Below, piece by piece: positions 17,423-49,318 of a stretch of DNA of 64,000 nt (position 1 is its first letter; every line of letters starts with the position of its first letter). The stretch covers positions 1 through 64,000 of the IMG/VR virus record IMGVR_UViG_2974597119_000001, one strand, 5' to 3'. The translations under genes and the position numbers were made by a program. Under the pieces are notes generated by a model. The model made no database searches and was not told where the DNA came from. It saw only the letters and a list, made by a program, of their open reading frames with translations. Source of the stretch: a virus (Duplodnaviria > Caudoviricetes).

Positions 17423-18925
17423 TTACTCGGCGGTGAACGGGCGCCACTTCGCGTTGCTGGGCAGGATGTTCTTGATGTAGCCGTGGTGCTTCGGCTTGGT
17501 CACGCGCAGGTAACCGAACAAGAACTGGAACCAGGAGATGACCGGCACACCGCCCACGCCGAACGGCAGCGGGATCTTGGTCATCGGCTGGTACTGGCGC
17601 CAGCCGATGGCATCGGCGGACGGGCCCAGGTTCAGCAGCGGGATCGACACCGTGCCGGGGATGTCGCGGTTCAGGTCGACGAAGGTCGTGGTCGCGCCAG
17701 CCTTCTTGACGATCTTCACCAGACGCAGATCGGCGGCCGCGTTGGTGCCGTTCTGGCGGCTGCGGTAGATCGCGTAGCCCGACTCGGTGCCGGAGGCCGA
17801 CTGGGCGATCGTCAGCGTCACCTTCTGGCCGGCGGCCACGGCGGTCTGCGTGGTCAGCGTCACGGCGGTCAGACCTTCGCCGTTGGCGCCGATGGCGGCC
17901 ACACCGTAGTAGAAGTTGCCGGCGCGGGCGGCCGAGAACTTCGACGCGGCGTCGGACGCGGTGGCGGCGGTCACGCTGGCCGGCTTGAACGCGACGTTGG
18001 CAGCGGCGACCGAGGCGTAGTTCACCTCGAACGGCTTGACCATCGGATGTTCTTCATCGTGGATGAAGGTGTCCATGTTGGTGCGCAGCACGCCGTGTTG
18101 CAGGCGGATGCCTTCGACGTGGCCGCCCAGCATCGGCGTGTTGTTGCCTTGCGGCACCCAGCGGTAGGCCGGGTCCAGACCCATGTTCAGGTCGTTCTGC
18201 ACCGAGTTGGGCAGGAACACGTCGGTCGAGCGGCCCCAGGAACCGTAGCGGCTGACGGCCGTGTTGATCTTGCCGAAGGCTTCCACGCTGTCCAGCTTGG
18301 CGCCGTCCAGGTCGACGATGTTGTCCTCGGGCATCTTGCCGTCGGCGATTTCCTTGTCGATGATGTTGAAAATACCATCGAACTGGGTCGGCGCGGCGTC
18401 GGCGTTGCCGTGGAACAGCAGGTACTCGGCGTCAGTCAGGAGCTGCAGCGCGCCGTTGCGTTCCTCGACGGCCGTGGCCTCGACGATATTCTTGCCGATG
18501 TTCAGGACGTAGCCGACCTGACGCAGAGACATCAGGAACTTCACCAGCCCGACTTCGCGGCTGTATTCGCCCTGCGCAGCGCGCACGACGCCCATCTGCG
18601 AGTTGGTCGAGCCGCCCAGGAAGCCGCCGACGCTCGACTGACGAACGTATTCGTCAACGATGTTGGTGGCCTTGGTCGCATTCAGGCGGTTGAACAGCAC
18701 GAAGTGCTCGTTCTCCTGAATCGTGGTCTTCATCGCCGTGTCCAGCGACTGCACGGTCAGGGCGCCACCGCCTTCCAGGGTCGCAACGTCCGTCTGGTAG
18801 TTGCTGGCCTGGAGAGCCTTCTGCAGCTCCTGGAACTGCTCCAGCGACCCGCCCGAGGTGCCACCCAGGGTCGGGATCGCGCCGCCGGGAACCATCCCGG
18901 CCATCATCTGTTGAATTCCGCTCAT
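17423..18925 (-). CDS. Major capsid protein (SPO1/Twort-like HK97 fold)
   Basis: 500 aa; LQKAL...GGALTVQSLD, LFHGN...QFDG, IVDLDG, FVDLNRDIPGT; downstream of protease and scaffold. Confidence 0.9.
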   Translation of the reverse strand: MSGIQQMMAGMVPGGAIPTLGGTSGGSLEQFQELQKALQASNYQTDVATLEGGGALTVQSLDTAMKTTIQENEHFVLFNRLNATKATNIVDEYVRQSSVGGFLGGSTNSQMGVVRAAQGEYSREVGLVKFLMSLRQVGYVLNIGKNIVEATAVEERNGALQLLTDAEYLLFHGNADAAPTQFDGIFNIIDKEIADGKMPEDNIVDLDGAKLDSVEAFGKINTAVSRYGSWGRSTDVFLPNSVQNDLNMGLDPAYRWVPQGNNTPMLGGHVEGIRLQHGVLRTNMDTFIHDEEHPMVKPFEVNYASVAAANVAFKPASVTAATASDAASKFSAARAGNFYYGVAAIGANGEGLTAVTLTTQTAVAAGQKVTLTIAQSASGTESGYAIYRSRQNGTNAAADLRLVKIVKKAGATTTFVDLNRDIPGTVSIPLLNLGPSADAIGWRQYQPMTKIPLPFGVGGVPVISWFQFLFGYLRVTKPKHHGYIKNILPSNAKWRPFTAE

Positions 18926-18955
18926 TTTGGTATGACCTCTGACGTGGGCGGGTTG

Positions 18956-19627
18956 TTAGGAAACGACTTTCTGGATCAGCTCGGCGCTGACGGGAGCACC
19001 GGTGCGCAGCGCCACGTCAATCGTGGTCAGCTCCTGGCCGGTTATCTTCTTGGCGTCGAACGCGGCATGCGACTTCGCCATGAACTCGCTGCCAGTCATG
19101 CCGCTGGGCTCGGACTTGTTCATCTGCTCGCCGGCGCCGGGCTTCTCGGTGATCGCCAGCACGGTCTTGCGGCCGCGGCCCTCGCCGCGCAGCTTGGCGA
19201 TCTCGCCCTGCATCGACTTGATCAGGTCGGCTTGACCCTTGACCAGACCGACGCACTGCTCGAGCGCCTTGAACATCTGGCTTTCGCCTTCGGCCTGCTT
19301 GGTGCCGAGCGCCTGCAATTGGCCCATCAGCGACTTGACCAGCTCGGTGCCATCGACGGCCTCGACCTGCTTACCGTCTTCCAGCGTGACGGTGCCGAGG
19401 GACTTGCCCAGGGTCTCGCCTTCGCCGTCGCCTTCACCTTCGCCGGCGCCGTCACCATCCGGCTTGCCGCCGGCGCCGTCGCCTTCACCATCCATGTCGC
19501 CGCCCTCCGCAGCGGCGGCTTGGATGTTCTTGTCATCCTCGCCATCACCCGCCGGAAGCGCTTTGCTCATGGTTTCTTGCTCCGAGGCCAAGCCGTCCAG
19601 CTCGGCCATCAGCTTGTCAAAACTCAT
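18956..19627 (-). CDS. Capsid scaffolding protein
   Basis: Acidic/coiled-coil 223 aa with repeated xxK[S/A] sites, between protease and capsid genes. Confidence 0.7.
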   Translation of the reverse strand: MSFDKLMAELDGLASEQETMSKALPAGDGEDDKNIQAAAAEGGDMDGEGDGAGGKPDGDGAGEGEGDGEGETLGKSLGTVTLEDGKQVEAVDGTELVKSLMGQLQALGTKQAEGESQMFKALEQCVGLVKGQADLIKSMQGEIAKLRGEGRGRKTVLAITEKPGAGEQMNKSEPSGMTGSEFMAKSHAAFDAKKITGQELTTIDVALRTGAPVSAELIQKVVS

Positions 19628-20517
19628 GGCTTACTCCGTTTTTTGAGACCAGTTTTCAGATCGCGCACAAAGCGCTCCACCCATTCGGCCGCGTCGCTTC
19701 GCGAGAGACCGAACGTATTCGCCGAATACTCGACGAGTTCCTTGATCCCGGGGTTGTCGCCGGCGGCGCCGTGGCGCATCGCATCGGCGAGCTTGTTCCG
19801 GAAATCGAAGTAGTTTGCCGGACCACCGGCATCGAGGGACTGCATGCCGAGCGCAGCGCCGCCCGTCTTGCCGACGGCATCGGTCGCATAGCCGGCCTCG
19901 AGCGCTTTCGACAGATCCAGGCCGCCCACGCCCCAGCACTTCGCGAGCGCACCGAACGGCACGGTCGCCACGGTCGGCACGGTCTGGTTCACCGGCGTCT
20001 TGCTGAATCCGATGTTGGTCCAGCGCACGCGCTTGACGAAAGCCTTCCGCAGCTTCGTGGTGGGGTCGATCTCGACGGCCTTCTCGAGCACCGCGCCGCC
20101 GACGGACGGATACCAGCGCGCCGGCGGGTCGACCTCGGTCACCGAGCTCCAGAATTGATTGGCGCGCTCCGCCGCCGGGCCCGTGCCGGCGAAGATTTCG
20201 CCTTTGACGAACGTGCGCCCGTCGGCGAAGCGCGCCTCGACCGGGCGACCGATCTCGAACAGCGTGTAGTCGGGGATCCCTGCCTTCGCGCCAATCTGTG
20301 TGATGTGATCGATGTCGAGATTGCCGTAGCGCAGGTAGTAGTCCGACGACGAGGAGAGTGCCTTTTGCAGCACCACCTCATTCTGTTGATCGGTCGCCTC
20401 GTTGCTCGCCTCGATGAACACGAACCGGCGACCGCCATCCATCATGGGCGTCGCCTTGAGCATCGAACCGATGCTCAAGTATTCGGGTACAGAGGCCAGC
20501 AGGTCGCGTTGATCCAT
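19624..20517 (-). CDS. Prohead protease
   Basis: EASNEATDQQNEVV, NLDIDH, YPSVGG and FSKTPVN motifs of herpes-fold phage proteases. Confidence 0.8.
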   Translation of the reverse strand: MDQRDLLASVPEYLSIGSMLKATPMMDGGRRFVFIEASNEATDQQNEVVLQKALSSSSDYYLRYGNLDIDHITQIGAKAGIPDYTLFEIGRPVEARFADGRTFVKGEIFAGTGPAAERANQFWSSVTEVDPPARWYPSVGGAVLEKAVEIDPTTKLRKAFVKRVRWTNIGFSKTPVNQTVPTVATVPFGALAKCWGVGGLDLSKALEAGYATDAVGKTGGAALGMQSLDAGGPANYFDFRNKLADAMRHGAAGDNPGIKELVEYSANTFGLSRSDAAEWVERFVRDLKTGLKKRSKP

Positions 20518-21097: not shown

Positions 21098-24000
21098 TCA
21101 AAGCAGAGACGGTTGTGAATCCGGCGCGGCCTGACGTTGTTTCAAATAGTAAGCCACGCCGGACTCGTCGAGCCCTTCCAGCGGCGTCGTCATCAGATCG
21201 CGCAGCCCGTATTTCTTGCGCAGGCGGTCGCGCGCGCGGTGGACTTCGGGGTGATCCGGCACGCCGTCGATCAGCTCCACGTCGTTTTTCTGGCCGGTGC
21301 GGAAGATGCGGCCGTTGCGCTGCGCGTGCGTCATGGCCGTCTGCGGGGTGTCGTATTGGTACAACCATTGCCCGCGCTGGATGTTCATGCCCGTGGCGCC
21401 GGCGTCGGACGCGACCAGGATGTCGGCCTGGGCTTCGCCCTGCTCGGGGTTGAACATCTGCCGCTTGCGGTCCTTTTCCTTGGCGCTGTCGGCGCCGGTG
21501 ATGGTGACCACGCGGTGCCCTTCCCGCTCCAGCCGCTCGGTCAGCATCTTCACCGCCTCGAGCGAGTGCGCGAACACCACGCCGGGCTTACCCTTGCGCT
21601 CGGCCGCGACCTGGGAGAGCTGGTCGACGTTGGGGTTGTCCGGGTGCGTGTTGATCACGCGCTGCACGGCCGACGATTTCAGGATTCCCAGGTTCTGCTG
21701 CAGGTCGCGGGCGACGGCTTCATGCTGATCGTCCGGAACGCCCTCGAACGACGACGGCGAGATCGCGCGCATGGCGGTCACGTCCACCTTGCCCTGCATG
21801 CGCGCCAGCCGCGCCGTGCTGAAATGCTGGTCCAGCTCGCCCAGCGCCAGCTTCTGGCCGTCGGACAGGCCCAGGCGCATTTCCTTGCGGTCGGCCGCCA
21901 CGTCCGGATCGATCTTCGACGGATACACGTAGCGCGCCATCTCGCGGCGCAGCGCATCCTTCGACGCCAGCGTGTCGGCGCCGTAGCGGCGCATGAACGC
22001 GGCGCGGTCGTTGTACCGGGCCGGATCCATCTTGCGCATCAGGTCGTAGACCTCGGACGCGTCATTCTTCACCGGGTCGCCGGACGCCATCAGATAGTAA
22101 GGTGTGTGGTGCGACAGCGCGTCGACAACGTTGGCGAGCCGCGAGTTTTCCTTGCCGGCGCGGTTGAGGGTGTACTGGCTTTCGTCGACCGTGAGGTAAT
22201 CGAAATTGATACCCTCGGCATCCAGGACGCCGCGCATCCAGTCCTTGCGCTCGTCGTCGGTCATGGCGTTCAGCCGGTCGGACATTTCCGACTCGGCGAT
22301 GCCGGCGTGCTTGGCGCCCAGGTGCAGCATGTCGTCGCGGAACGACTGATGCGTCATGACGGCGAAATGCGTGTCCGGGTTCTTGTAGGCGGCGATGCGA
22401 TCCTCGCGGCCGGCGCCGGGCTCGATGTGCCAGTTGAACTTGCCGGGCTCGAGGTAGCGCAGGGCCTCGCCAGAGAACTGGCCCTGCACGATGGACGGCA
22501 CCAGGAACAGGCCGCGCTTCACCTTGCCCTGCTCGCGCAGGTGCGTGAACGAGGCGAGCTGCAGCAGCGACTTGCCGGAGCCGGTGCCGAACGCCGCGAC
22601 GACGCGCTTGTTGGCGTCGACCATCTTCACCAGCCGCTGGCGCGCCGCGTTCTTGCCGCCGCTCATGGTCGGATTCCAGAGCTTGGTCGGCTGGCCCGGT
22701 TTGAAATTCTGGCCGACGATTCCCATCATGCCGGCAATCTGCCGCTCGGCCTCGTGCCCCAGCGTGTGCCGCTCATCGCCGCCAAGCTGGATTTCCTTCG
22801 CCGCCTCGCCCGCACCACCGCCGAACATATCGTCCTGGGCGGAGAAAAAGCCCATCTGTGCCTGCTCGAACGCTTCCTGCCGGTCGCGCGCGGCGTCCAT
22901 CTTCTCGCCCACGCTACCGCTGGCGTAGCGGCCGCCCACGCGCTCGCGCAGGCTGTCGATCAGCGCGCGCTCGCGCTGCATGCGATCCTCGCGCGCGGCC
23001 GGGTCGGTCGCGTCGAGGTGATTCAAATTGTTACGGATGACGGCCTTGCCCAGCTTGATCGGCGCGCCCGGGTTGAGGCGGTTGTGGGCGTCCGCGAACG
23101 ACTTCGCGACGTTCGAGCGGATCAGATCCTGCACCGCCTCGTAGGCGTTCTCGTTGCCGCGCATCGTGTCGACGTACTTGCCCCAGGTCAGCGACGCCGC
23201 GCCGACCTTGGCCGCGAGCTCGTCGCGCTGCTGGCGCCACTCGGACCATTCGGGGTTGGTCACGGTGTCGCCGAACATATCGGTCGTCTCTTTCTCCGGC
23301 TCGGCGCCCTGAATGCGGTCCAGGTCCGCGCGCAGGCCGGCGGCCTCGGGGCTTTCCTTCGCCACGTTGCGATAGAAGAACTCGCGCAGCGCGCGCTGGT
23401 CCTGCGGCGTCAGCTCGCCGAGCTGCTTGTAGGCGGCCGTGCCCTCCGGCGTGTCCGACAGGGCGCGGTGCAGCGCGTCGACCGCCTTCTGGTCGACCGT
23501 GAATTTCTGCCGGTTCAGGGTCGAACGGCCGCCGCCGTAGCGCTGCTCGACGAACTGGTCGGCATACTGGTCGAAGCGATCCGCCAGGGCCTCGGCGCGC
23601 TGCATCTTGCCGTCCTGGCCCTTGAGCGGCGCCACCGCGTCGAGCGCGGCGCGGTATTCTTCCGACCGGTCGCGGCCCACCTTGACGAAGAACTCCGCCG
23701 ACTGGATGTCGGCCACGATATCGCCCGGCGCGTCGCCGTCGGCCGCACGGCCGCCGATGTAATCGCGCAGCGACTGCTCGAGGTCGGCGCCCGGCTGGAA
23801 TTGCTCGGCGAGGCGCGGCGCGACGCCGGGCTTCACGTCCATAACCAGGTCTGGCCGGTTCGCCACGCCCAGCGGCAACCAGCCGTCCTCGTCGTGCTCG
23901 CCCTGGATGATCGAGAGGTTGCGGCGCACCTGCTCGAGGTCGCCGCGCTGGATCGGCTTCGCCAGCCGGTCGAGGCCGGCGCCGTTCACGGTCAGGAAGG

Positions 24001-25654
24001 TGTCACCCGCCACGCTGTCGATGGTGTAGTCGCCGCGCTGCAGGCCGATGGCCCGCACCTGCCGGATGGCGTCCTCGATGCCCAGCTTGCCGAGCGAGAC
24101 CTGGAACTGGTCTTTCTTGCCCTGCTTGAGCGCCACGACCAGGGCCGCGTTCGCCTCCATCTCGCCCAGGGCCTGACCCAGCACCTTCTGCGCGCCCGTC
24201 ACGGCTTCGCGCCGGCGCGCGTTCAGCTCCTGCGCAGCCTGCAGGTCGGCGCCCGTGGCCGCCTCGCCGAGCTCGATTTCCTTCGCCGCGTCCATCAGGT
24301 CGCGCGCGGTGCCCAGGGCCTCCTCGCTAGCCTGCATATAATGGTGAAGGTGGAAGTCCTGCATGCCTTCGGCGACCCGCTCCACCTCGTCCGGCATGTC
24401 GGTGTGGATCCGGCGCGCCAGCACCTGCGCGGCACCGGCCACGCCCAGCACGTCGACGACGCTGCGGTCGACCAGGGCATCACCGCCGACGGCCAGCGCC
24501 AGCGAGTTGACGCTGTTGTAGGCGCCGATGCCGATATGCTTGCCCAGGGTTTCCTCGGGATTCGGCCCGGCCAGCTTCTCGAACTCGGACAGGAACGCCC
24601 GCGTCTGCATGGTGCGCAGGTCGTTGTTCAAGTCCTCGGCAATCTTGGCGTCGGTGTCCGGGTCGGCGCTGTACTCGAGCACGTAGGCTTTCGGCTCGGC
24701 GGCCGCGCGGTCGATTTCGGCGCTCGCCTCCCGCGCCTTCTTCTGGATGGCGCGCAGCTTCTTCTGCGCGCGCAGCAGTTCGACCGCCTGCTTGGCGTCG
24801 GCCAGGGCGGCGTCGGCGTCCGGCACGGCCGGCTCGCGGATGTTCTTGAGCTCGTCGCGGATCATGCGCGCGGTCTCGCCGCGCTGCACGGCCGCCTTGC
24901 GCTGGGCGTCCGTCATCTGCGCCTGCTTCGCGGCGCGCGCGCGGTCGGCCTCGGCCTTGAGCTCGTCGTCCGTCAGGCCGGCATCCTCGGCGCGCCCCTT
25001 GTAGTCCGTCTGGAAGCCCAGGCCGCCCGGGTTGTCAGGAATCGGGTTCAGGTCTTGGACCGACAGCACCTCCGGATCCTTGGCGTCCAGCGGAACCTCG
25101 CCGATGCCCGCCTCCATGCGCGCGGCCGAATCGGTGACAAGGCGCTGGCGCTGCAGCTCGACCGCATCGTTGGCGCGCTGCACGAGCTCGCGGTGATGCT
25201 TCTTGCGCATCTTGCCGAGCGCCGCGTCGGACAGGTGCGCGTAATCGGCCTCCGGAAACTCCAGGCCGGCCGGATCCCAGCCCATCGTTTGCGCGACGGT
25301 CTGCACGAACTCGCGCTCGTGCGCCATGCGCTGCGCGCGCACGTTCTCCTGCGCCTTCTTCTTCGACTCGAGGATGCCCGCCTCTTTGTCGCGCTTGCGC
25401 TGTTCCTTTTTCTGGTCAGCCTTGTCCTTCTTGCGCTGCTCGGCCTCGCGCTTGTATTCGGACTCCGAGCGCACGCTGCGCAGCTTGAGATAGTTCAGCT
25501 TGCCGCCGGCGCCGCCGATGACGTGCGCCGAGCCGTCCGGGTTTTCCTGGATCAGCACAGGCTGCCCCTCGGTGCCCGGCCCATTGGGATGCACGGTGAT
25601 CCAGCGCGCGCCGGCCGGGATTTTCGAGGCTTTCAGGAACAGGATCGGCTTCAT
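21098..25654 (-). CDS. Large SNF2/SF2 helicase-like protein, probable virion cargo
   Basis: Start MKPILFLKA (25654); FGTGSGKS, VDESQ, GMNIQ and QRNGR motifs. Confidence 0.85.
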   Translation of the reverse strand: MKPILFLKASKIPAGARWITVHPNGPGTEGQPVLIQENPDGSAHVIGGAGGKLNYLKLRSVRSESEYKREAEQRKKDKADQKKEQRKRDKEAGILESKKKAQENVRAQRMAHEREFVQTVAQTMGWDPAGLEFPEADYAHLSDAALGKMRKKHHRELVQRANDAVELQRQRLVTDSAARMEAGIGEVPLDAKDPEVLSVQDLNPIPDNPGGLGFQTDYKGRAEDAGLTDDELKAEADRARAAKQAQMTDAQRKAAVQRGETARMIRDELKNIREPAVPDADAALADAKQAVELLRAQKKLRAIQKKAREASAEIDRAAAEPKAYVLEYSADPDTDAKIAEDLNNDLRTMQTRAFLSEFEKLAGPNPEETLGKHIGIGAYNSVNSLALAVGGDALVDRSVVDVLGVAGAAQVLARRIHTDMPDEVERVAEGMQDFHLHHYMQASEEALGTARDLMDAAKEIELGEAATGADLQAAQELNARRREAVTGAQKVLGQALGEMEANAALVVALKQGKKDQFQVSLGKLGIEDAIRQVRAIGLQRGDYTIDSVAGDTFLTVNGAGLDRLAKPIQRGDLEQVRRNLSIIQGEHDEDGWLPLGVANRPDLVMDVKPGVAPRLAEQFQPGADLEQSLRDYIGGRAADGDAPGDIVADIQSAEFFVKVGRDRSEEYRAALDAVAPLKGQDGKMQRAEALADRFDQYADQFVEQRYGGGRSTLNRQKFTVDQKAVDALHRALSDTPEGTAAYKQLGELTPQDQRALREFFYRNVAKESPEAAGLRADLDRIQGAEPEKETTDMFGDTVTNPEWSEWRQQRDELAAKVGAASLTWGKYVDTMRGNENAYEAVQDLIRSNVAKSFADAHNRLNPGAPIKLGKAVIRNNLNHLDATDPAAREDRMQRERALIDSLRERVGGRYASGSVGEKMDAARDRQEAFEQAQMGFFSAQDDMFGGGAGEAAKEIQLGGDERHTLGHEAERQIAGMMGIVGQNFKPGQPTKLWNPTMSGGKNAARQRLVKMVDANKRVVAAFGTGSGKSLLQLASFTHLREQGKVKRGLFLVPSIVQGQFSGEALRYLEPGKFNWHIEPGAGREDRIAAYKNPDTHFAVMTHQSFRDDMLHLGAKHAGIAESEMSDRLNAMTDDERKDWMRGVLDAEGINFDYLTVDESQYTLNRAGKENSRLANVVDALSHHTPYYLMASGDPVKNDASEVYDLMRKMDPARYNDRAAFMRRYGADTLASKDALRREMARYVYPSKIDPDVAADRKEMRLGLSDGQKLALGELDQHFSTARLARMQGKVDVTAMRAISPSSFEGVPDDQHEAVARDLQQNLGILKSSAVQRVINTHPDNPNVDQLSQVAAERKGKPGVVFAHSLEAVKMLTERLEREGHRVVTITGADSAKEKDRKRQMFNPEQGEAQADILVASDAGATGMNIQRGQWLYQYDTPQTAMTHAQRNGRIFRTGQKNDVELIDGVPDHPEVHRARDRLRKKYGLRDLMTTPLEGLDESGVAYYLKQRQAAPDSQPSLL

Positions 25655-32585: not shown

Positions 32586-32601
32586 ATTGTGCTGTCACGA
32601 T
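32586..32601 (-). promoter_or_regulatory. Late-type promoter (ATCGTGAC-AG-CACAAT) for the DarB-like gene
   Basis: Recurrent motif about 30 nt upstream of ATG 32555. Confidence 0.7.
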
Positions 32602-33110
32602 CAGTTTGCCGGGCGCGCCGCCAAGAACAGCACCAGGGCCTTGATCATGGCCGGCTTGTCGCGCGTGGCCCGCACCTTCGTTACAAACTCGTCGACCGGC
32701 ATCGCCGTGATCGGGCCGAGAAAGCGCGGATCGTCGTAGTGCTCGAGGTACGCGGCGCGCGCGGCGGCCTCGCTGGGGAAGCCCAGCATGCACTTGTCCT
32801 CGTCGTACTTGGCCCATTCGCCATACTTGCGCTGATGCACCACGTAGACCGTCGGCGCCGTCTCGAGCTCCGGGCCCAGGTACACGTCCACCTCGTCGCC
32901 GTCGACCGCCTCCGACCGGCAGACGTAGCCGTAGTCGTACTTCATCTTCGTGCGCCAGCCCTTGCCCTCGCGCACGGACCCGGCCGGGTTCTCGATGGCG
33001 ATCTCCAGGCCGTTCCACTTCACGCGCGGCTTCTTGTAGTTGCCGGCCTCGGCCTGCGCCGGCGTGGGCGGCGTCCACGCATCGGCCTTGAGCAGCACAA
33101 CGGCGCCCAC
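32601..33110 (-). CDS. Phage inorganic pyrophosphatase-like protein
   Basis: GTG 33110; IENPAGSVR, YGY, DGDEVDV and DEDKCMLGF motifs of the polyvalent-protein PPase domain. Confidence 0.8.
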   Translation of the reverse strand: MGAVVLLKADAWTPPTPAQAEAGNYKKPRVKWNGLEIAIENPAGSVREGKGWRTKMKYDYGYVCRSEAVDGDEVDVYLGPELETAPTVYVVHQRKYGEWAKYDEDKCMLGFPSEAAARAAYLEHYDDPRFLGPITAMPVDEFVTKVRATRDKPAMIKALVLFLAARPAN

Positions 33111-33292: not shown

Positions 33293-34449
33293 TTCGTCTC
33301 CAGGGTCTGGCGGAGCCAGTTTCCAAAATCGGTGTCGTCGCCGGGCTCGTCCTGGATCACAGGAAGCCAGCGGCCACGGCAATGCGGGTGCTGCACGCCG
33401 GCGGCGATCCACCAGCGCTCATCCGGCTCGCGCTCGACCAGCGTGTTGCCTACGCGCTTGCGCGGCGCCGCTGAGCGGCCGATGTTCGTTTTGCCCGGCC
33501 AGATTTGCGTGTCGCCGTCCTTTTTCGGCGCATCGGCCGCCACGACCTCGACCACCTTGCCGTCGATCTTTCGGCAAAAGGCGCAGGCGTTGCGGTACTG
33601 CTCGACGCGCTTTAGCTTCGTCCCCGGTTTCTGGCTGGAGACATAGCCCTGATTGGCGTTCTCGCCGGCCTCGGTCACAGCGATGCGGCGCCAGTCGCGG
33701 TTCAGCGTCGCGAACTCGTCGAGCAGCGTCGTCTGCAGGCTGTGAGACGGGCGCGGCGCCTCGCCGTGGCCGGCCAGCATCTGCTCCTCGGTGTGCTGCC
33801 GGATCACGTTGCGCATGCGGTGCCGCGCGTCGTCGGCCAGCTTCTGCACGTTCTCCGCAGCGCGCGCCGCGCCGAAGCGCATGACGTTGACCTGCAGCGG
33901 CGTGAGCGGCAGGAACTGCGCCGCTTCGTCCACGGTCGACGGCAGCGCCGCGAGCACCGTGTCGGCCTGCTTGGCGTTCAGGGCCTCCATGCTGGCCTGC
34001 ACGCGGCCCATGAGCGTCGCGCGCGTCGCGAGCCATTCGGCCTCGGTGCGCAGGTCGTCCGCCGGCAGGTAGCGCTGCACGAGGTAGTCGACCATCAGCA
34101 TGTTGTCGTCGAGCGTCCATTCGGCCGGCGGCAGGGCCTCGAGATAGAGCTTCACCAGCTCGCGCTCGCCCTCAGTCCAGCGCTGCATGGCGCCATCGGG
34201 ACGCGCCGGCACCGTGCCCGGCCGGTGCTTCTCGCCAGCCAACCACTTCTCGAGCTCGGCCCGGAAGCCATCCAGGCGCATGAGCCCGCGCTGCGTGAAC
34301 AATTCGATCAGGCGTCGGACGAACGGCGACTCGTGCGGGTTCCAGATGGAATCGTCGCCGTCGTGAGTGTGCAGGGCCTTGTAAATCTGGTTGAGCGCGC
34401 GGTCAGTCTGCGGCTCGTTCAGGGCGCCCAGGTCGAATAGGAGTGCCAT
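33289..34449 (-). CDS. MuF/gp7-like head morphogenesis protein
   Basis: RIAVTE, ACAFC and HPHCRG motifs. Confidence 0.8.
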   Translation of the reverse strand: MALLFDLGALNEPQTDRALNQIYKALHTHDGDDSIWNPHESPFVRRLIELFTQRGLMRLDGFRAELEKWLAGEKHRPGTVPARPDGAMQRWTEGERELVKLYLEALPPAEWTLDDNMLMVDYLVQRYLPADDLRTEAEWLATRATLMGRVQASMEALNAKQADTVLAALPSTVDEAAQFLPLTPLQVNVMRFGAARAAENVQKLADDARHRMRNVIRQHTEEQMLAGHGEAPRPSHSLQTTLLDEFATLNRDWRRIAVTEAGENANQGYVSSQKPGTKLKRVEQYRNACAFCRKIDGKVVEVVAADAPKKDGDTQIWPGKTNIGRSAAPRKRVGNTLVEREPDERWWIAAGVQHPHCRGRWLPVIQDEPGDDTDFGNWLRQTLETK

Positions 34450-34471
34450 GCTGCGAGCATAGCGTCACGAT
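34450..34471 (-). promoter_or_regulatory. Late-type promoter, leaderless (ATCGTGAC-GC-TATGCT-6nt-ATG)
   Basis: Recurrent motif. Confidence 0.7.
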
Positions 34472-35163
34472 CACGCGGCCCAATCCAACGCGGGACCGGC
34501 CAGCGCCACGGGCTTCAAGGTCGCCGCATCCAGGATGGTGAAATCATGCCCTTGGAACACTGCGCCGGTGTCGATGTGGTAGACGTTGCCGAGGATCACC
34601 GGCCGTTGCAGCGGCGTATGCCCGACCACGACCGCACGCACGCCGGCCACGGGGATGTGGCGTTCCTGCTGGATCCGCTCGCGGCTCCACATTGCGAGCA
34701 TCCCGAACACGTCATCTTTCAGGTACTCGGGGAAATCCGCCCAGTCGTCCGGGCAATTCGCATGCACGATCCCGACAAGGCCGTCGGCCGTCTCGAGCTC
34801 GATTGCGATGGGAAGCTCGTCGAAAGCGGCCGCGAATGCTTTTTGGCGCATCGTCGGCAGGTCCATGAACCATTGGCCGCCGTTCGCCGCGTAGGTGCGC
34901 GGGTCGTACATGCCCTTCGCCGCGTCGACTGCCATCTGCTCATGGTTGCCGCGCACCGCGTGGAACCAGGGCTGCGCCAGCCACTCCAGCGCGAGCTCGG
35001 ATTCGGGCCCGCGATCCACCAGATCGCCGACGCTGAACAGCCGGTCGCGCGAAGGGTCGAACCCCATTTGATCGAGGCGCGCTTGCAGGCGCGAGAAACA
35101 CCCGTGGATGTCGCCAACGATGAAATCGCGGCCGGCGCTATTGCCGCCGAATTGTTTGATCAT
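34471..35163 (-). CDS. Metallophosphoesterase (lambda NinI/PphA-like Ser/Thr phosphatase family)
   Basis: GDIHG, GDLVDRG, RGNHE, GHT and IDTG motifs. Confidence 0.9.
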   Translation of the reverse strand: MIKQFGGNSAGRDFIVGDIHGCFSRLQARLDQMGFDPSRDRLFSVGDLVDRGPESELALEWLAQPWFHAVRGNHEQMAVDAAKGMYDPRTYAANGGQWFMDLPTMRQKAFAAAFDELPIAIELETADGLVGIVHANCPDDWADFPEYLKDDVFGMLAMWSRERIQQERHIPVAGVRAVVVGHTPLQRPVILGNVYHIDTGAVFQGHDFTILDAATLKPVALAGPALDWAA

Positions 35164-35165
35164 GG

Positions 35166-35744
35166 TTAGAGCTGGCTGATGCCAGTCAGGTAGGTCGTCT
35201 CGAACAACCGCCGGAGCAAGGCATTCCGGGGCCCCATTGCATGCACGACGCTGCGCGCATGATCGAAATACTCGCGCTTGCGTTCCTGACTCCAGGGCGG
35301 CGGCGCCGCGATGATGTCGCGCAGGTTCGCCGTCTTGTCCGCCGTCTTGATCCAGGCCGCGCGGTCGCTGTAGTGCGGCGCCTTGTCGATCTGCGCCTGC
35401 TTCTGCTGCGGCTTCGGCAGCGTCTCGTCGTTGGTCAGCTCGGCCACCAAGTCGGCCACGGTCAGGCCGAACCGCGCCGCGAGCTCGGCGTGCTTGACGC
35501 CGGTGTCCTCGATGGTGTCGTGCAGGACCGCCGCGATCAGCGTGTCGCGGTCGGTGATGCCCGCCTCGTCACGCAGGATGCTCACGACGGCGCGCGGGTG
35601 CGCTATATAAGGTGTCTTGCCGTCCTTGCGGTATTGGCCGGCGTGCTTGTGCTCGGCGAACCGGTCGGCGCGGTAGTAGGGAGAAACGACAGTCCCGTCC
35701 TGGCGGGTGTATCCGGCGACCTGCGCCTTGAGGAATACGATCAC
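35166..35744 (-). CDS. HD-domain small alarmone hydrolase (SpoT/Mesh1/Aph1-like)
   Basis: HAGQYRK..TPYIAHP, AAVLHDTIEDT and IKTADKTANL motifs. Confidence 0.88.
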   Translation of the reverse strand: MIVFLKAQVAGYTRQDGTVVSPYYRADRFAEHKHAGQYRKDGKTPYIAHPRAVVSILRDEAGITDRDTLIAAVLHDTIEDTGVKHAELAARFGLTVADLVAELTNDETLPKPQQKQAQIDKAPHYSDRAAWIKTADKTANLRDIIAAPPPWSQERKREYFDHARSVVHAMGPRNALLRRLFETTYLTGISQL

Positions 35745-35953
35745 TCCGCCGCCTGCGCAGGTTGCTCCTTCTGACCGGCGCCCATCAGGGCCCGGGCTTC
35801 TTCCTCGCTGATCACGCTGCCCCAGTCGATGGGCTTGTCCTTGCTGCCCTTGTAGGGAACGAACTTGCCCTGTCCCTCGCTCCAGACCTCCTGGGGGACG
35901 CCCCGGGCCGGGCCCCGGAACAAAGCACCTTCGTTTTCGATGTAGACCATCAC
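35741..35953 (-). CDS. Small protein between synthetase and hydrolase (putative immunity protein)
   Basis: 70 aa, 4-nt overlaps with both neighbours; C-terminal ISEEEA motif. Confidence 0.6.
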   Translation of the reverse strand: MMVYIENEGALFRGPARGVPQEVWSEGQGKFVPYKGSKDKPIDWGSVISEEEARALMGAGQKEQPAQAAE

Positions 35954-37431
35954 GTTCTCCGAATCAGCATGATCATTTTAGAGAAAGGCGCGGCCTTCTG
36001 CAAAGGTACATGGTCCTGCTGTTGCTTTCCGTCAACGCCGGACTGCCCTGCGCCGGACGCCTTGCTCCAGGCCGTGTCGTAGATTTCCTTCTGCGCCTTG
36101 AGCGCTTCGTAGAACTTCCGGTGATCCTCGTCCGACCATTTGTCGCCCGGCTCGGCCTCGCCGTACTTGGCCTGGAGGCTGCGGCTCACGTTGTAGTGCT
36201 CGTGCCCCTCCTCCTTGGCGAGCGTCATCGCTTTGACGTGAATCTGGAGCTCGGCCAGCATTCCGTTGGGCAGCTTCACGATGGTCATGAGGTCGCGGTA
36301 GCCCTCGTCGGTCGGCTTGGCGAACCGATCCTTGGGTTTCTGCGCCAGCTCGATCCCGGCGTCGCGCAGGTGCCCCAGCGCCTGTTTCACGCTGCCCATC
36401 GACGGCACGCTGATCGTGGCGCGCACGATGTCGCGCAACTGCGACCAGTCGCCGTCATAGTCGGCCTCGACCTTTTCCTTGGCGCGCTTCTCGCCCTTGA
36501 GCGGCGCGATGAACAGGAACCCGGTGTCGCTTTCCCATTCCTCCGGCGTGATGTCGTCCGGTTTCTTGCCGGACTGCAGGCCCATGACCTGGGCGACCTT
36601 GCCGAGCTGTTCGCGGAACTGGCCCAGCCCCTCGGTGCCCTTCTCGACCAGCTCCTCCCACGATTTGACCGGCTGGTTCACCTTCGCCGGCAGCTTGGCG
36701 AGCTCGTCGGCAGTGAACAGCGCGCCGCTGTCGTTGGCCGGCGCCGGCGCGGCCGCGCCCTGGTCGGCTATCTCGGACCAGCGGACCTGATGCACGCGGC
36801 CGGACGCGTCTTTGACGTGCGCGCCATCTGCGCCCGGTTCACCGACGATCTCGCCCTCGCCCTCGAAATCGCCCGCCTTGAACCGCACCTTGTCGCCCGG
36901 CTTGGCGCGCGGCGCGCCGGCGGCGGCCGGATCCTCATGCGCCGCAGGCTTGCGCTGGGCCGGCTGGCCCTTGTCGGTGCGGACCCATTTCGTCTGCTTG
37001 CGGCCGGTCCGGTCGACGATCTGCTTGCGCGTCAGCCCGGCGCGGTTCGCCGGCGGCATGTCGTGGTTGTCGGCTTTGAAGAACAGCAGCACGCGCCCGT
37101 CGGCGCCGAGAGATTTGGTGACCAATTTGTCCTCGTCTGCGTCGGGCGGGATGGACAGGTAGCGGCGCTGGCCGGCCGCATCCTCGACGATCATGCCGTC
37201 CTCGCCCTCATCGAGGATCGTGTAGCGCTGCGCGGCGCGCTTCTTGTGCCCGAGCACCTTGCCCCAGGGGACGCGGTGATCTTCGCCATCGCAGTCAACC
37301 GTGCAGCCGTGCTTGCCGTGCGCGCGCACGCAGCCGGCGCGCGGGCCGTCGCCGTGCTGGAAATAGACGTGATCGCCGATCTCGACGCCGGGCACGCGCT
37401 CCGGCTCTTGCTGGGGCTTCGCTTTCTTCAT
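35950..37431 (-). CDS. RelA/SpoT-family nucleotidyltransferase (small alarmone synthetase) with N-terminal extension
   Basis: LKGEKRAKEKV, LRDIVRATI, DRF...GYRD, AELQIH and H..Y motifs. Confidence 0.82.
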   Translation of the reverse strand: MKKAKPQQEPERVPGVEIGDHVYFQHGDGPRAGCVRAHGKHGCTVDCDGEDHRVPWGKVLGHKKRAAQRYTILDEGEDGMIVEDAAGQRRYLSIPPDADEDKLVTKSLGADGRVLLFFKADNHDMPPANRAGLTRKQIVDRTGRKQTKWVRTDKGQPAQRKPAAHEDPAAAGAPRAKPGDKVRFKAGDFEGEGEIVGEPGADGAHVKDASGRVHQVRWSEIADQGAAAPAPANDSGALFTADELAKLPAKVNQPVKSWEELVEKGTEGLGQFREQLGKVAQVMGLQSGKKPDDITPEEWESDTGFLFIAPLKGEKRAKEKVEADYDGDWSQLRDIVRATISVPSMGSVKQALGHLRDAGIELAQKPKDRFAKPTDEGYRDLMTIVKLPNGMLAELQIHVKAMTLAKEEGHEHYNVSRSLQAKYGEAEPGDKWSDEDHRKFYEALKAQKEIYDTAWSKASGAGQSGVDGKQQQDHVPLQKAAPFSKMIMLIRRT

Positions 37432-40999: not shown

Positions 41000-42193
41000 G
41001 TGAACCATGTCATCCACGAAGAAGGATCTCGCCCCGTAAAAATCTGGACCGATGAGGTCGAGGACAGCGCGCTCACCCAGCTCAAGAATCTGGCGCGCCT
41101 GCCGTTCATCCACGGCAACGGCGTCGCGGCCATGCCCGACGTTCACGCTGGCATCGGCGCCACGGTCGGCAGCGTCATCGCGACGGACAAAGCGATCATC
41201 CCGGCCGCCGTCGGCGTCGACATCGGTTGCGGCATGAACGCCGTGCGCCTGTCGCTCAAAGCGTCCGACCTGCCGGAAAGCCTGACCGCCATTCGCCACC
41301 AGATCGAGCGCGACGTGCCGCTGGGCGCCGGCGGCGCACACAAGCCCGACCGTATGCCGACCATGCCCGAGCATCTGTGGAACGGCCTGGGCCTGCTGAC
41401 CGCGAAGCACGAGGCCCTGGAAAAGAACAGCGCCGGCCGCCAGCTCGGCACGCTCGGCTCCGGCAATCACTTCATCGAGCTCTGCCTGGACGAGAACCAG
41501 GACGTGTGGATCATGCTGCACTCCGGCTCGCGCGGCATCGGCAACCTGATCGGCCGCTACTTCATCGAGAAGGCCAAGCGCCGGATGGAGCAGTATTTCA
41601 TCAGCCTGCCCGACGGCGATCTCGCCTACCTGCCCGAGGACACCGACGACTTCAACGATTACGTCGAGGCGGTGAACTGGGCCCAGGACTACGCGCTCGA
41701 GAACCGGCGCGTCATGATGGAGGCCGTCATCGCCGCGCTGCGCCGGCATGTGTCGTCGCACCTTTTCGACTTCACGATCACCCAGGAAGCGATCAACTGC
41801 CACCACAACTACGTCGAGAAGGAGAACCATTTCGGCCGGAACCTGTGGGTCACGCGCAAGGGCGCCATCCGCGCGCGCGCCGGAGACTTGGGCATCATTC
41901 CTGGCTCGATGGGCCAGCGCAGCTACATCGTGCGCGGCAAGGGCAATGTCGAATCCTACTGCTCATGCTCGCACGGTGCCGGCCGGAAGATGAGCCGCGC
42001 CGCCGCGCGCCGGATGTTCACGGTCGACGACCTGAAAGCACAGACCGCCGGCGTCGAGTGCCGCAAGGACGACGCCGTGCTGGACGAGATCCCGGCCAGC
42101 TACAAGGACATCGACGCCGTGATGGAAAACCAGCGCGATCTCGTCGAGGTCGTGCATGTCCTGAAACAAGTTCTGTGCGTCAAGGGCGCGTAA
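41000..42193 (+). CDS. rtcB: RtcB RNA 2',3'-cyclic phosphate ligase
   Basis: MPDVHAG, VGVDIGCG, GNHFIE, HSGSRG, HHNY, RKGA, PGSMG and SHGAGR motifs. Confidence 0.95.
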   Translation: MNHVIHEEGSRPVKIWTDEVEDSALTQLKNLARLPFIHGNGVAAMPDVHAGIGATVGSVIATDKAIIPAAVGVDIGCGMNAVRLSLKASDLPESLTAIRHQIERDVPLGAGGAHKPDRMPTMPEHLWNGLGLLTAKHEALEKNSAGRQLGTLGSGNHFIELCLDENQDVWIMLHSGSRGIGNLIGRYFIEKAKRRMEQYFISLPDGDLAYLPEDTDDFNDYVEAVNWAQDYALENRRVMMEAVIAALRRHVSSHLFDFTITQEAINCHHNYVEKENHFGRNLWVTRKGAIRARAGDLGIIPGSMGQRSYIVRGKGNVESYCSCSHGAGRKMSRAAARRMFTVDDLKAQTAGVECRKDDAVLDEIPASYKDIDAVMENQRDLVEVVHVLKQVLCVKGA

Positions 42194-48562: not shown

Positions 48563-49318
48563 TCACGACCGCCAGTCAGAGATCCCCAGCTCGTCGCGCA
48601 TCACCTCGTCGACCTCATCGCCCAGGTCAGGGCGGCGAGCGGCGATGTATTGTGCCAACGCACGACTCGAGCCGCCGGCCGACTCCAGGACGCGCATCAC
48701 GTCCGTGCGCCGTAGCTGCTCGACGGAATCCGCCGCGATCTTGATCAGGTGCTCCATGTCCTCGCCGCCAGCCGGCGCCGCCGAGGCACCGATACCCAGC
48801 CGCTCGTTCAGCACGCCCGGCCGGTGATTGTCCGACACGACGCCGGCCGTGCCGAAGGAATCGAACGTCGAGCGCGGGTCCGCCTTCTCGGCCTCCTCGC
48901 GCGCGCGGTCGACGTGCGCCAGGGCCTCGTCGTGCGTGTCGAACGGGCCAGCCAGCCGCGCGACGCCACGCCCCTCTCGCGCCATCGTCACGTAATACTT
49001 CCGGCGCGGGTCGTCGTCGTCCGGGCCCTGCTTGGTGCTGCGCACAGCTTCGCGCGCCTCCGCCTCGTCGGCCATGCGGTCGTAGCCCTTGGCGTCCTCG
49101 TGGTGGCCGCGCTCGCGGTACTTCCGCGCCATGTCGCGAAAGCGCTCGGAATCGGATTGCTTCGGCGCTGGCGTGGCCGCCGGCGCCGGGAACAGCGCGA
49201 GCTGGCCGGTCGCTGCCGACGCCACCGCGCCGCCCTTGCGCTCGTGCGGCTTCACGTAGCGTCCGGCGCGCATGTAGCCGGCAACATGCGATTTCAGGAA
49301 CAGGATGACGGTGCTCAT
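48563..49318 (-). CDS. Hypothetical protein, probable virion cargo
   Basis: MSTVILFLKSHVAGYMRAGRYVKPH N-terminus; leaderless late-type promoter at 49319-49340. Confidence 0.7.
   Translation of the reverse strand: MSTVILFLKSHVAGYMRAGRYVKPHERKGGAVASAATGQLALFPAPAATPAPKQSDSERFRDMARKYRERGHHEDAKGYDRMADEAEAREAVRSTKQGPDDDDPRRKYYVTMAREGRGVARLAGPFDTHDEALAHVDRAREEAEKADPRSTFDSFGTAGVVSDNHRPGVLNERLGIGASAAPAGGEDMEHLIKIAADSVEQLRRTDVMRVLESAGGSSRALAQYIAARRPDLGDEVDEVMRDELGISDWRS

Follow-up and report, generated by a model that had tools for sequence, protein, structure and literature searches.

Phage-borne (p)ppApp synthetase toxins have so far been known as MuF fusions in temperate phages. In these Apk2 modules, described from Bacteroides caccae, S. 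pneumoniae, and M. haemolytica, a head module carries a Tas1-like kinase and is accompanied by a small protein, IapK (BcTis1), and an HD hydrolase, Aph1 (PMC10083569, PMC12226406). Genes for Tis1-like proteins are always present in Apk2 loci, and aph genes are present sometimes (PMC10083569). Here, we describe a cassette of similar organization in the IMG/VR virus record IMGVR_UViG_2974597119_000001 (Duplodnaviria; Caudoviricetes). The DNA analyzed, hereafter called the window, comprises the initial 64 kb of this 94,005-bp record, which CheckV rates as complete. The cassette lies directly downstream of the portal gene and encodes a 493-residue protein with a RelA/SpoT-like synthetase domain, a 69-residue protein whose family we call small70, and a hydrolase of the HD_4 family.

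An earlier annotation made from the DNA letters alone (the first-pass annotation) had likened this block to the arrangement of Apk2, small immunity protein, and hydrolase, and both the gene order and a census of partner genes bear out the likeness. As in Apk2 modules, the small gene is present nearly always and the hydrolase gene sometimes, and the locus lies in a block of head-morphogenesis genes. Unlike in Apk2, the part that carries the synthetase is not MuF, and the gene's place is downstream of the portal gene and upstream of a distinct gene with weak similarity to MuF. The small protein lacks sequence similarity to Tis1 and IapK, its structural match to Tis1 having a Z-score of 3.0, and the hydrolase is of the Mesh1 type and has an N-terminal cargo tag. 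The phage itself is Otagovirus-like with a genome of ~94 kb. Judged by its sequences, the cassette is a variant made from different parts, which would work like Apk2–IapK–Aph1 but, lacking MuF and an Aph1-type hydrolase, belongs with neither Apk2 nor Aph1.

Several other described systems share features with this locus. The closest solved catalytic domain is that of Tas1/Apk1 of Pseudomonas aeruginosa (PDB 6OX6), and the model of the small partner aligns to the cognate Tis1 over 56 residues with 20% identity. Tas1 is an effector of a type VI secretion system (T6SS), whereas here there is neither a PAAR domain nor a T6SS; delivery would be by the phage capsid, and there would be an extra, enzymatic safeguard. 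The polyvalent proteins of phages (Iyer, Burroughs, Anand, de Souza, and Aravind, 2017; PMC5512222) contain RelA/SpoT, InPase, Zeta, DarB-like methyltransferase–helicase, 2H, and ART domains and are predicted to be packaged and injected. In our phage, by contrast, the domains are found in separate genes, each with its own tag or carrier, and are accompanied by immunity-like partners. The capsid-targeting sequence of T4 and the N-terminal packaging signal of P1 DarB (PMC9026906, PMC9024508) are, like the putative tag described below, short N-terminal peptides common to unrelated cargo. The tag resembles these signals further in that it occurs on a DarB-like protein and ends in a motif that also marks predicted processing sites in the scaffold, protease, capsid, and portal proteins; it differs in that its sequence is unrelated, its function is putative, and the motifs of the synthetase are internal and C-terminal. 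Finally, in the FaRel–ATfaRel pair of Cellulomonas marina, a toxic small alarmone synthetase (toxSAS) is likewise neutralized by a hydrolase that degrades its product, but that system is a chromosomal toxin–antitoxin pair without head context or carrier.

A synthetase cassette in a variable slot downstream of the portal gene

The genes for the portal, the 493-residue RelA/SpoT-like protein, the 69-residue protein, the HD hydrolase, and a metallophosphoesterase belong to one unbroken run of genes on the minus strand, and all five have a strong GC bias at the third codon position (0.82–0.91). Reading the junctions directly gives the same gene order, 4-nt overlaps, 2-nt gap, and coupling to the portal gene that the first-pass annotation had reported. 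The portal stop codon overlaps the synthetase start codon by 4 nt (ATGA). The synthetase and small-protein genes meet in the sequence GTGATG, which corresponds to an overlap of 4 nt with the GTG start or 1 nt with the ATG start, and the small-protein and HD genes overlap by 4 nt (GTGA). Gaps of 2 and 21 nt separate the HD gene from the phosphoesterase gene and the latter from the gene for a 386-residue protein. Within the cassette, promoter-like and terminator-like sites are not in excess compared with shuffled sequence. As to the start of the small protein, its homologues all open with MVYIENEG or MIYIENEG, so translation probably begins at the ATG at 35950 and gives 69 residues.

In nearly all related loci, the carrier gene (i.e., the gene encoding the N-terminal part of the 493-residue protein, with or without the synthetase) is preceded by a portal gene whose product is 60 to 88% identical to the one in the window. 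The nearest cultured relatives, with genomes of ~90 to 95 kb, are the Pseudomonas phages Jeremy, Dolphis, and Touem01 and the Aeromonas phage ST4. In Jeremy, a homologue of the 386-residue protein is encoded directly after the portal gene and the slot is empty, and in Touem01, a GDSL lipase gene lies between these two genes. Because its contents differ in these phages, the slot filled by the synthetase block, which is bounded by the portal gene and a conserved gene of minor-head-like type, is a variable cargo slot.

The synthetase domain and its closest relatives

The RelA_SpoT profile PF04607 matches the 493-residue protein with 30.6 bits, the cut-off being 27, and with 34 bits in a six-frame search of the genome. 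More than 200 metagenomic clusters contain full-length homologues of the protein, many of them on contigs of 80 to 98 kb. A tblastn search with the synthetase against 50,697 phage records returned only a carrier-only ORF of Morganella phage Mecenats66. Neither the synthetase nor the small protein has a PHROG family, and PADLOC assigned none of the cassette proteins to a defense system.

In an alignment of 36 homologues, K312, K320, D334, R337, G377-Y378-R379-D380, E394, Q396, K406, and H410 are invariant. D334, Y378, and E394 align with D264 (the catalytic Asp), Y308 (the stacking Tyr), and E323 (the catalytic Glu) of RelSeq, and the ATP-binding lysines show no variation across the 36 homologues. 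Searching the PDB with the family profile yielded Tas1 (6OX6) with an E-value of 6e-10, whereas all other RelA/SpoT homologues had E-values of 2e-3 or higher and no tRNA-modifying toxSAS appeared at E-values up to 1.

An AlphaFold2 (AF2) model of the domain was predicted with high confidence, with a predicted local distance difference test score (pLDDT) above 90 over residues 236 to 460. A Foldseek search with this model gave Tas1 as the top match (E 3e-8). In the VIA structural alignment, RelP, RelQ, and Tas1 were level at Z-scores of 14 to 15 over ~170 residues; Tas1 (Z 14.0) had the lowest root-mean-square deviation (rmsd), 2.4 Å, and the highest identity, 24%, and CapRel had a Z-score of 11.8 and the lowest identity, 13%. 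By profile, Foldseek, rmsd, and identity, the modeled domain has the fold of a small alarmone synthetase (SAS), with Tas1 as its nearest solved relative. Adenosine-type enzymes have been assigned the signatures RYT in syn2, GxN in syn3, and YH in syn4 (PMC12226406). The corresponding syn2 (D..RAT) and syn4 (Q-I-H) motifs of the present domain lean toward the adenosine type, the fit being partial.

A carrier module joined to exchangeable effectors

The first-pass annotation had described the synthetase as having its own N-terminal extension rather than being fused to MuF, and the sequence searches and the structural model agree. Residues 1 to 240 have no match in Pfam at E-values up to 10, and the carrier has none in PHROG or PADLOC. 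There was no match to PAAR in Pfam, and the gene context is that of phage head genes. In the AF2 model, two Tudor/SH3-like barrels are predicted with a pLDDT of ~90, and residues 97 to 129 and the tail (residues 462–489) are disordered. Structural matches of the carrier to Tudor-like domains are weak (Z 7–7.8). The ESM Atlas gave no usable feature matches for the carrier, and its structural matches had TM values below 0.35 by query, except for small Tudor-like barrels.

One homologue, P0119, is 73% identical over residues 1 to 240, but its C terminus is a Zeta_toxin/AAA_33 domain. A search with the carrier alone recovered 82 clusters, in which it is accompanied by RelA_SpoT, by Zeta_toxin/AAA_33, or by no recognizable effector. 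As the same carrier is joined to different effectors, the predicted architecture is that of a polymorphic toxin, with a constant delivery module and a swappable effector.

The linker and the tail of the protein contain candidate processing or targeting motifs (Table 1). In the linker, where the pLDDT is ~40, K106 is invariant and K119 is kept in at least 90% of the 36 homologues. In the tail, the motif [LM]-x-K-[SA], with a hydrophobic run 5 to 8 residues further on, occurs in 31 of the 36 homologues; the other five lack both elements.

The carrier-only protein of Mecenats66 (locus L025) is ORF58, which has 152 residues and is encoded at positions 33500 to 33958 of that record, directly after the portal gene. 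It is followed by a 49-residue ORF, a “putative minor head protein” that is a homologue of the 386-residue protein, and a large helicase. The paper on this phage includes no proteomics. Mecenats66 could be a tractable model for studying the carrier's own role.

The small partner follows the type of effector

In related loci, small proteins that are 57 to 71% identical to the one in the window are encoded directly after the synthetase. We made a census of 106 loci, which were reduced to 71 non-redundant ones, and counted partner genes where the downstream sequence extended for 1.5 kb or more. Among the 24 loci encoding carrier and synthetase, a small70 gene follows in 20, a true HD_4 gene is present in 13, and the small protein typical of Zeta loci is absent from all. 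Among the 13 loci encoding carrier and Zeta kinase, 10 have the Zeta-type small protein, one (L066) has a small70 gene, which is an orphan, and none has a true HD_4 gene. The Zeta-type small protein belongs to an unrelated conserved family with the motif IPSPxxRPDLYDDFD; each type of effector on the carrier has its own small downstream protein. We liken the proportions observed for synthetase loci (small70 in 20/24, HD in 13/24) to the pattern of Tis1-like and aph genes in Apk2 loci.

A structural comparison was made in which Tis1 was the one chain named in advance by the hypothesis. The AF2 model of small70 (pLDDT 79) was aligned exhaustively to 48,161 representative chains, and Tis1 (6OX6_B) ranked third. 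The 69-residue protein has neither the N-terminal tag nor the protease motif that are described below. It is probably the cognate protein inhibitor, i.e., the immunity protein, of the synthetase.

The small70 profile matches 231 representative clusters, nearly all of which are stand-alone proteins of 55 to 110 residues. In L066, an intact orphan small70 gene (8001–8207) follows the Zeta effector and its small partner, and the locus contains no synthetase gene; it looks like an orphan immunity gene. In L115 (4001–4945), a 314-residue ORF from an NCBI assembly consists of the C-terminal half of a synthetase domain (hhalign probability 99.6) joined to a small70 domain. Either a true fusion or decay of the locus could account for this ORF, and there are transposase genes nearby. 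In L113 (4001–4189), a distant small70 gene belongs to a mobile island that also encodes AlpA, a D5_N primase, and a type I restriction enzyme; it adjoins a gene for an uncharacterized 143-residue protein and may be a host- or satellite-side immunity gene directed against injected synthetases. The neighbors of the distant small70 genes in L112 (291 residues) and L113 (143 residues) were considered as candidate synthetases, and no synthetase was detectable in either.

The hydrolase is of the Mesh1 type

The hydrolase matches human MESH1/HDDC3 with an E-value of 5e-36, residues 24 to 179 corresponding to residues 8 to 165 of MESH1. It keeps the HD and ED motifs, and the segments HP, LHDTIED, and ADK..N are conserved relative to MESH1. 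The match to Aph1 (7SMG), in contrast, has an E-value of only 6e-4 over 80 residues; we therefore abandoned the label Aph1 type, and with it the analogy to Aph1 that the first-pass annotation had drawn, in favor of the Mesh1 type. Human Mesh1 cleaves (p)ppGpp as well as (p)ppApp (PMC12691689).

The difference in the occurrence of HD_4 genes between synthetase loci and Zeta loci in the census is significant (Fisher p 9e-4). Additional “HD” matches in one Zeta locus and three carrier-only or unassigned loci (L053, L057, L059, and L064) were discarded, as they reflected only the N-terminal tag on other proteins. Because the gene is found only with the synthetase type of effector, a role of the hydrolase tied to the phage's own enzyme is a better fit than broad action on alarmones of the host, such as the erasure of host defense alarmones that the first-pass annotation had suggested.

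Probable links between the cassette and the virion

Synthetases of the same clade (37–48% identical) are found fused to portals and inside polyvalent proteins. In L017, the synthetase is located at the C terminus of a PF06381 portal and a small70 gene adjoins; in L082 (2903–8248), it is part of a portal–NUDIX–synthetase protein. Giant polyvalent proteins in L085, L086, and L100 combine the synthetase with MuF, ART-PolyVal, 2H phosphoesterase, and Zeta domains. RelA/SpoT and InPase are among the phage-only domains of polyvalent proteins that are predicted to be packaged and injected (Iyer et al. 2017, PMC5512222). Since synthetases of this clade occur as fusions with portals and with MuF polyvalent proteins, a link of the synthetase to the virion is likely.

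The polyvalent protein of L086 (1598–13777) has 4059 residues and comprises synthetase, Zeta, 2H phosphoesterase, C70 protease, and MuF domains. The protein of L104 (3233–12826) contains a synthetase, the anti-CBASS protein Acb1, and LPD38 and has no MuF match.

The first-pass annotation had also assigned the hydrolase a putative packaging tag. We defined the tag as four hydrophobic residues followed by K-[A/S] at the N terminus of a protein and compared its genome-wide count with that in 2000 shuffles. The tag occurs on five proteins (hydrolase, DarB-like protein, helicase, InPase, and a 251-residue protein), whereas the shuffles gave a mean of 0.107 and a maximum of 2, which supports a tag that the hydrolase has in common with other cargo-like proteins. 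The motif also occurs inside the linker of the synthetase. In the hydrolase, the DarB-like protein, and the 251-residue protein, the similarity extends over ~30 residues and includes G-[YH]-x-R-x-DG-x-V-x-P-[HY]. The tag is kept in a relative with 46% GC and in 13 of 18 cassette hydrolases, and a tblastn search with the tag of the hydrolase matched the N termini of DarB-like proteins in L057, L059, and L064. The 251-residue protein, which is encoded outside the head module (48563–49318, minus strand), belongs to no known family and starts with MSTVILFLKSHVAGYMR..VKPH; it is a further candidate packaged protein.

The tag ends in a shorter motif, Φ-x-K-[AS], that recurs in the head genes of the window (17423–20517) and in the portal. 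It occurs 7 times in the scaffold (18956–19627), compared with 0.6 expected (p 4e-6), and 5 times in the protease (19624–20517), compared with 0.8 expected (p 0.0015). The synthetase ranks third, with 4 occurrences versus 1.3 expected. The motif is kept near the N terminus of the capsid protein (ELQK-AL, ~36 residues in) and at both ends of the portal, also in Jeremy and Touem01. Φ-x-K-[A/S] is probably the cleavage consensus of the prohead protease.

Neighboring genes

The first-pass annotation had counted the metallophosphoesterase as part of the cassette. Genes for the same NinI-like phosphatase are also found in two Zeta loci (L007 and L030) and elsewhere in the Touem01 genome and are absent from most synthetase loci, and the protein has neither tag nor motif. 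Its distribution rules it out as a fourth member of the system; it is a common phosphatase that is not specific to the cassette.

The same annotation had stated that MuF and a pyrophosphatase (PPase) follow. The latter assignment stands, the PPase being a PF18823 InPase, but the MuF identity of the 386-residue protein is weak. This protein matches Phage_min_cap2 with an E-value of 0.014, and three of six family members match the same profile, the best with an E-value of 5e-4. Phage_Mu_F scores 0.25, and phrog_581 matches the 386-residue protein with an E-value of 0.008; all scores against MuF-type profiles (PF04233/PF06152) are below the cut-offs. Homologues of the 386-residue protein adjoin the portal in both Jeremy and Touem01. 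A PADLOC match of the protein to DndB was dismissed as spurious.

InPase probably starts at the GTG at 33110 rather than at the TTG at 33326. It carries the N-terminal tag VVLLK-A and a C-terminal tail, MIK-ALVLFL, and is present in both synthetase-type and Zeta-type loci, whatever the effector. Beyond the helicase gene lie the protease, scaffold, and capsid genes. An intact gene for an RtcB RNA ligase (41000–42193, plus strand; PF01139, E 1e-129) is located a few kb from the cassette on the opposite strand. Outside the window, at positions 87443 to 87892 of the record, a 508-residue open frame contains a tyrosine recombinase match (PF00589, 35 bits, over the cut-off). Given this recombinase, the phage may have a temperate or plasmid-prophage lifestyle.

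Table 1. Positions in the window of the cassette genes, the parts of their products, and the adjoining genes
Feature	Position	Strand	Assignment
Portal, 582 residues	37428–39176	−	PF04860, E 8e-17; phrog_12, E 1e-43
Synthetase protein, 493 residues	35950–37431	−	PF04607 RelA_SpoT
Carrier module, residues 1–232	36736–37431	−	Two Tudor/SH3-like β-barrels (21–64, 181–217) and hairpins, modeled
Disordered linker, residues 103–120	37072–37125	−	LVTK-S and LLFFK-A, predicted prohead-protease or capsid-targeting motifs
Catalytic SAS domain, residues 236–462	36046–36726	−	Tas1/Apk1-like
C-terminal tail, residues 476–493	35953–36006	−	PLQK-A, then hydrophobic run MIMLIRR; predicted cleavable propeptide
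Small protein	35741–35953 as listed (GTG start); 35741–35950 from ATG	−	No family
HD_4 hydrolase, 192 residues	35166–35744	−	PF13328, 76 bits (cut-off 27.2)
N-terminal tag of hydrolase, first ~30 residues	35655–35744	−	
Metallophosphoesterase, 230 residues	34471–35163	−	PF00149, 58 bits, E 2e-15; phrog_246 (NinI-like Ser/Thr phosphatase), E 2e-77
Minor-head-like protein, 386 residues	33289–34449	−	Distantly MuF/minor-capsid-2-like
InPase	32601–33110	−	PF18823, E 3e-45 to 9e-45
DarB-like N6-methylase and SNF2 helicase, 2097 residues	26262–32555	−	Pfam
SNF2/DEAD-type helicase, ~1517 residues from MKPILFLK-AS start	21098–25651	−	Pfam; short tag

Discussion

We consider it probable that the cassette encodes a capsid-loaded, carrier-borne Tas1-like synthetase that is restrained in the producing cell by a Tis1-like inhibitor and a Mesh1-type hydrolase. 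The carrier, with its barrels, its linker, and a tail containing hydrophobic-K-[A/S] motifs, would bring the 493-residue protein into the procapsid, next to the portal. With ATP as the pyrophosphate donor, the synthetase would pyrophosphorylate the 3′-OH of adenine, or possibly guanine, nucleotides. In the producing cell, the untagged, translationally coupled 69-residue inhibitor would silence the enzyme, so that ATP-dependent DNA packaging would not be poisoned. The Mesh1-like HD enzyme would act as a second, enzymatic safeguard by restoring normal nucleotides from (p)ppApp or (p)ppGpp, and its N-terminal tag, which recurs on the DarB-like protein, the helicase, and InPase, makes it likely that this enzyme is packaged as well. 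The synthetase, once ejected into the next host, would have an early effect, in host shut-off or in competition.

Several observations weigh against this explanation. The syn3 motif, GYRDL[M/N] in the family and GYRDLM here, matches neither the adenosine-type GxN nor the guanosine-type SxH, and Apk1-like enzymes may yield only (p)ppGpp, or both products (PMC12691689). The match between small70 and Tis1 is weak (Z 3.0, rmsd 3.5 Å, 56 residues, 20% identity), the small70 profile gives only chance-level matches to PDB sequences, and Foldseek finds nothing in the PDB for its model at E-values up to 0.001. Distant relatives of small70 adjoin unrelated genes, including those of the island with the type I restriction enzyme. 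Five of the 18 cassette hydrolases lack the tag, and the carrier occurs alone in some phages (L022 and Mecenats66), where its own function may be structural. No cultured relative with the synthetase gene was found among the 50,697 phage records. A very fast ATP-consuming enzyme, if injected, would also harm the phage.

A more far-reaching possibility, which we regard as unlikely, is that the virion delivers the synthetase together with the tagged hydrolase and the tagged InPase and leaves the inhibitor behind. Joint delivery of these enzymes, with a timed alarmone pulse as one possible outcome, had been suggested by the first-pass annotation. The three enzymes would form a self-limiting circuit, in which the synthetase converts 2 ATP to pppApp and AMP, the hydrolase converts pppApp to ATP and pyrophosphate (PPi), and InPase converts PPi to 2 phosphate (Pi). 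The outcome would be a brief pulse of alarmone and a controlled drain on ATP that shuts down the host without killing the infection. Free-standing small70 genes in phages and host islands would then provide superinfection or anti-phage protection against injected enzymes, and with the hydrophobic-K-[A/S] peptide as a movable address label, any protein could be loaded into this capsid.

The substrate of the synthetase could also be tRNA. It seems rather improbable to us that the enzyme is a pyrophosphokinase of the tRNA 3′-CCA end, like CapRel, FaRel2, and PhRel2, that blocks translation in the newly infected or producing cell, with the HD enzyme stripping the 3′-pyrophosphate from tRNA. Small alarmone hydrolases can, as Kurata et al. 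reportedly found in 2021, reverse tRNA pyrophosphorylation. The acceptor in tRNA is also the 3′-OH of an adenosine, so that the syn2 (D..R.T) and syn4 (Q.H) motifs do not discriminate between the two activities, and CapRel does align structurally with the domain. Moreover, the presence of RtcB, along with the tRNAs and tmRNA that the first-pass annotation lists nearby, suggests that the phage meets translation-directed conflict. These points are set against the family profile, which finds Tas1 and, at E-values up to 1, no tRNA-modifying toxSAS; against the alignment to CapRel, which has the lowest identity and a Z-score below those of Tas1, RelP, RelQ, and SaEAS; and against the 69-residue partner, which is weakly Tis1-like.

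The remaining two alternatives concern the fate of the proteins and the work of the partners. The proteins might stay unpackaged and constitute a late toxin–antitoxin or addiction module, serving the upkeep of a plasmid-like or integrated prophage or abortive exclusion, that merely sits in a variable slot. The slot is indeed variable, as seen in Jeremy and Touem01, the genome encodes a tyrosine recombinase and that of the relative Touem01 a ParA-like gene, and a toxin with a small antitoxin and a hydrolase antitoxin is the FaRel/ATfaRel pattern (PMC10083569). We nevertheless find such a module hard to credit: in almost all relatives, translational coupling ties the synthetase gene to that of the portal, physical fusions join enzymes of this clade to portal and MuF proteins, the synthetase has conserved motifs of the class that is enriched in scaffold and protease, and the neighboring DarB-like protein and InPase are classic packaged cargo. 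Least probable of all, in our view, is that the small protein is an assembly chaperone or adaptor that loads the effector into the procapsid, and that the hydrolase, as a separate injected enzyme, removes (p)ppGpp from the host to keep it metabolically active. Sequence searches detect no relative of the small protein among known immunity proteins, its structural match to Tis1 is weak, and the hydrolase, tagged like other cargo, is of the Mesh1-like type that hydrolyzes (p)ppGpp (PMC12691689), all of which would suit that scheme. Yet the hydrolase occurs only with the synthetase type of effector (13/24 vs 0/13), the orphan small70 genes without a synthetase (L066 and L113) are typical of immunity genes rather than loading chaperones, and the pattern of one partner always and the other sometimes equals that of Tis1-like and Aph1 genes.

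The cassette follows the three-part logic of the Apk2 modules with a new carrier, a new family of small partners, and a Mesh1-type hydrolase, and the family is found in a large clade of ~90-kb phages. Its carrier occurs with either of two exchanged effectors, a Tas1-like synthetase or a Zeta-type kinase, and the small partner differs accordingly. Synthetases fused to portal and MuF proteins, together with a tag found on at least five proteins, might also be put to use in bringing foreign proteins into capsids. If true, our explanation would mean that alarmone-based warfare extends to phage infection itself.

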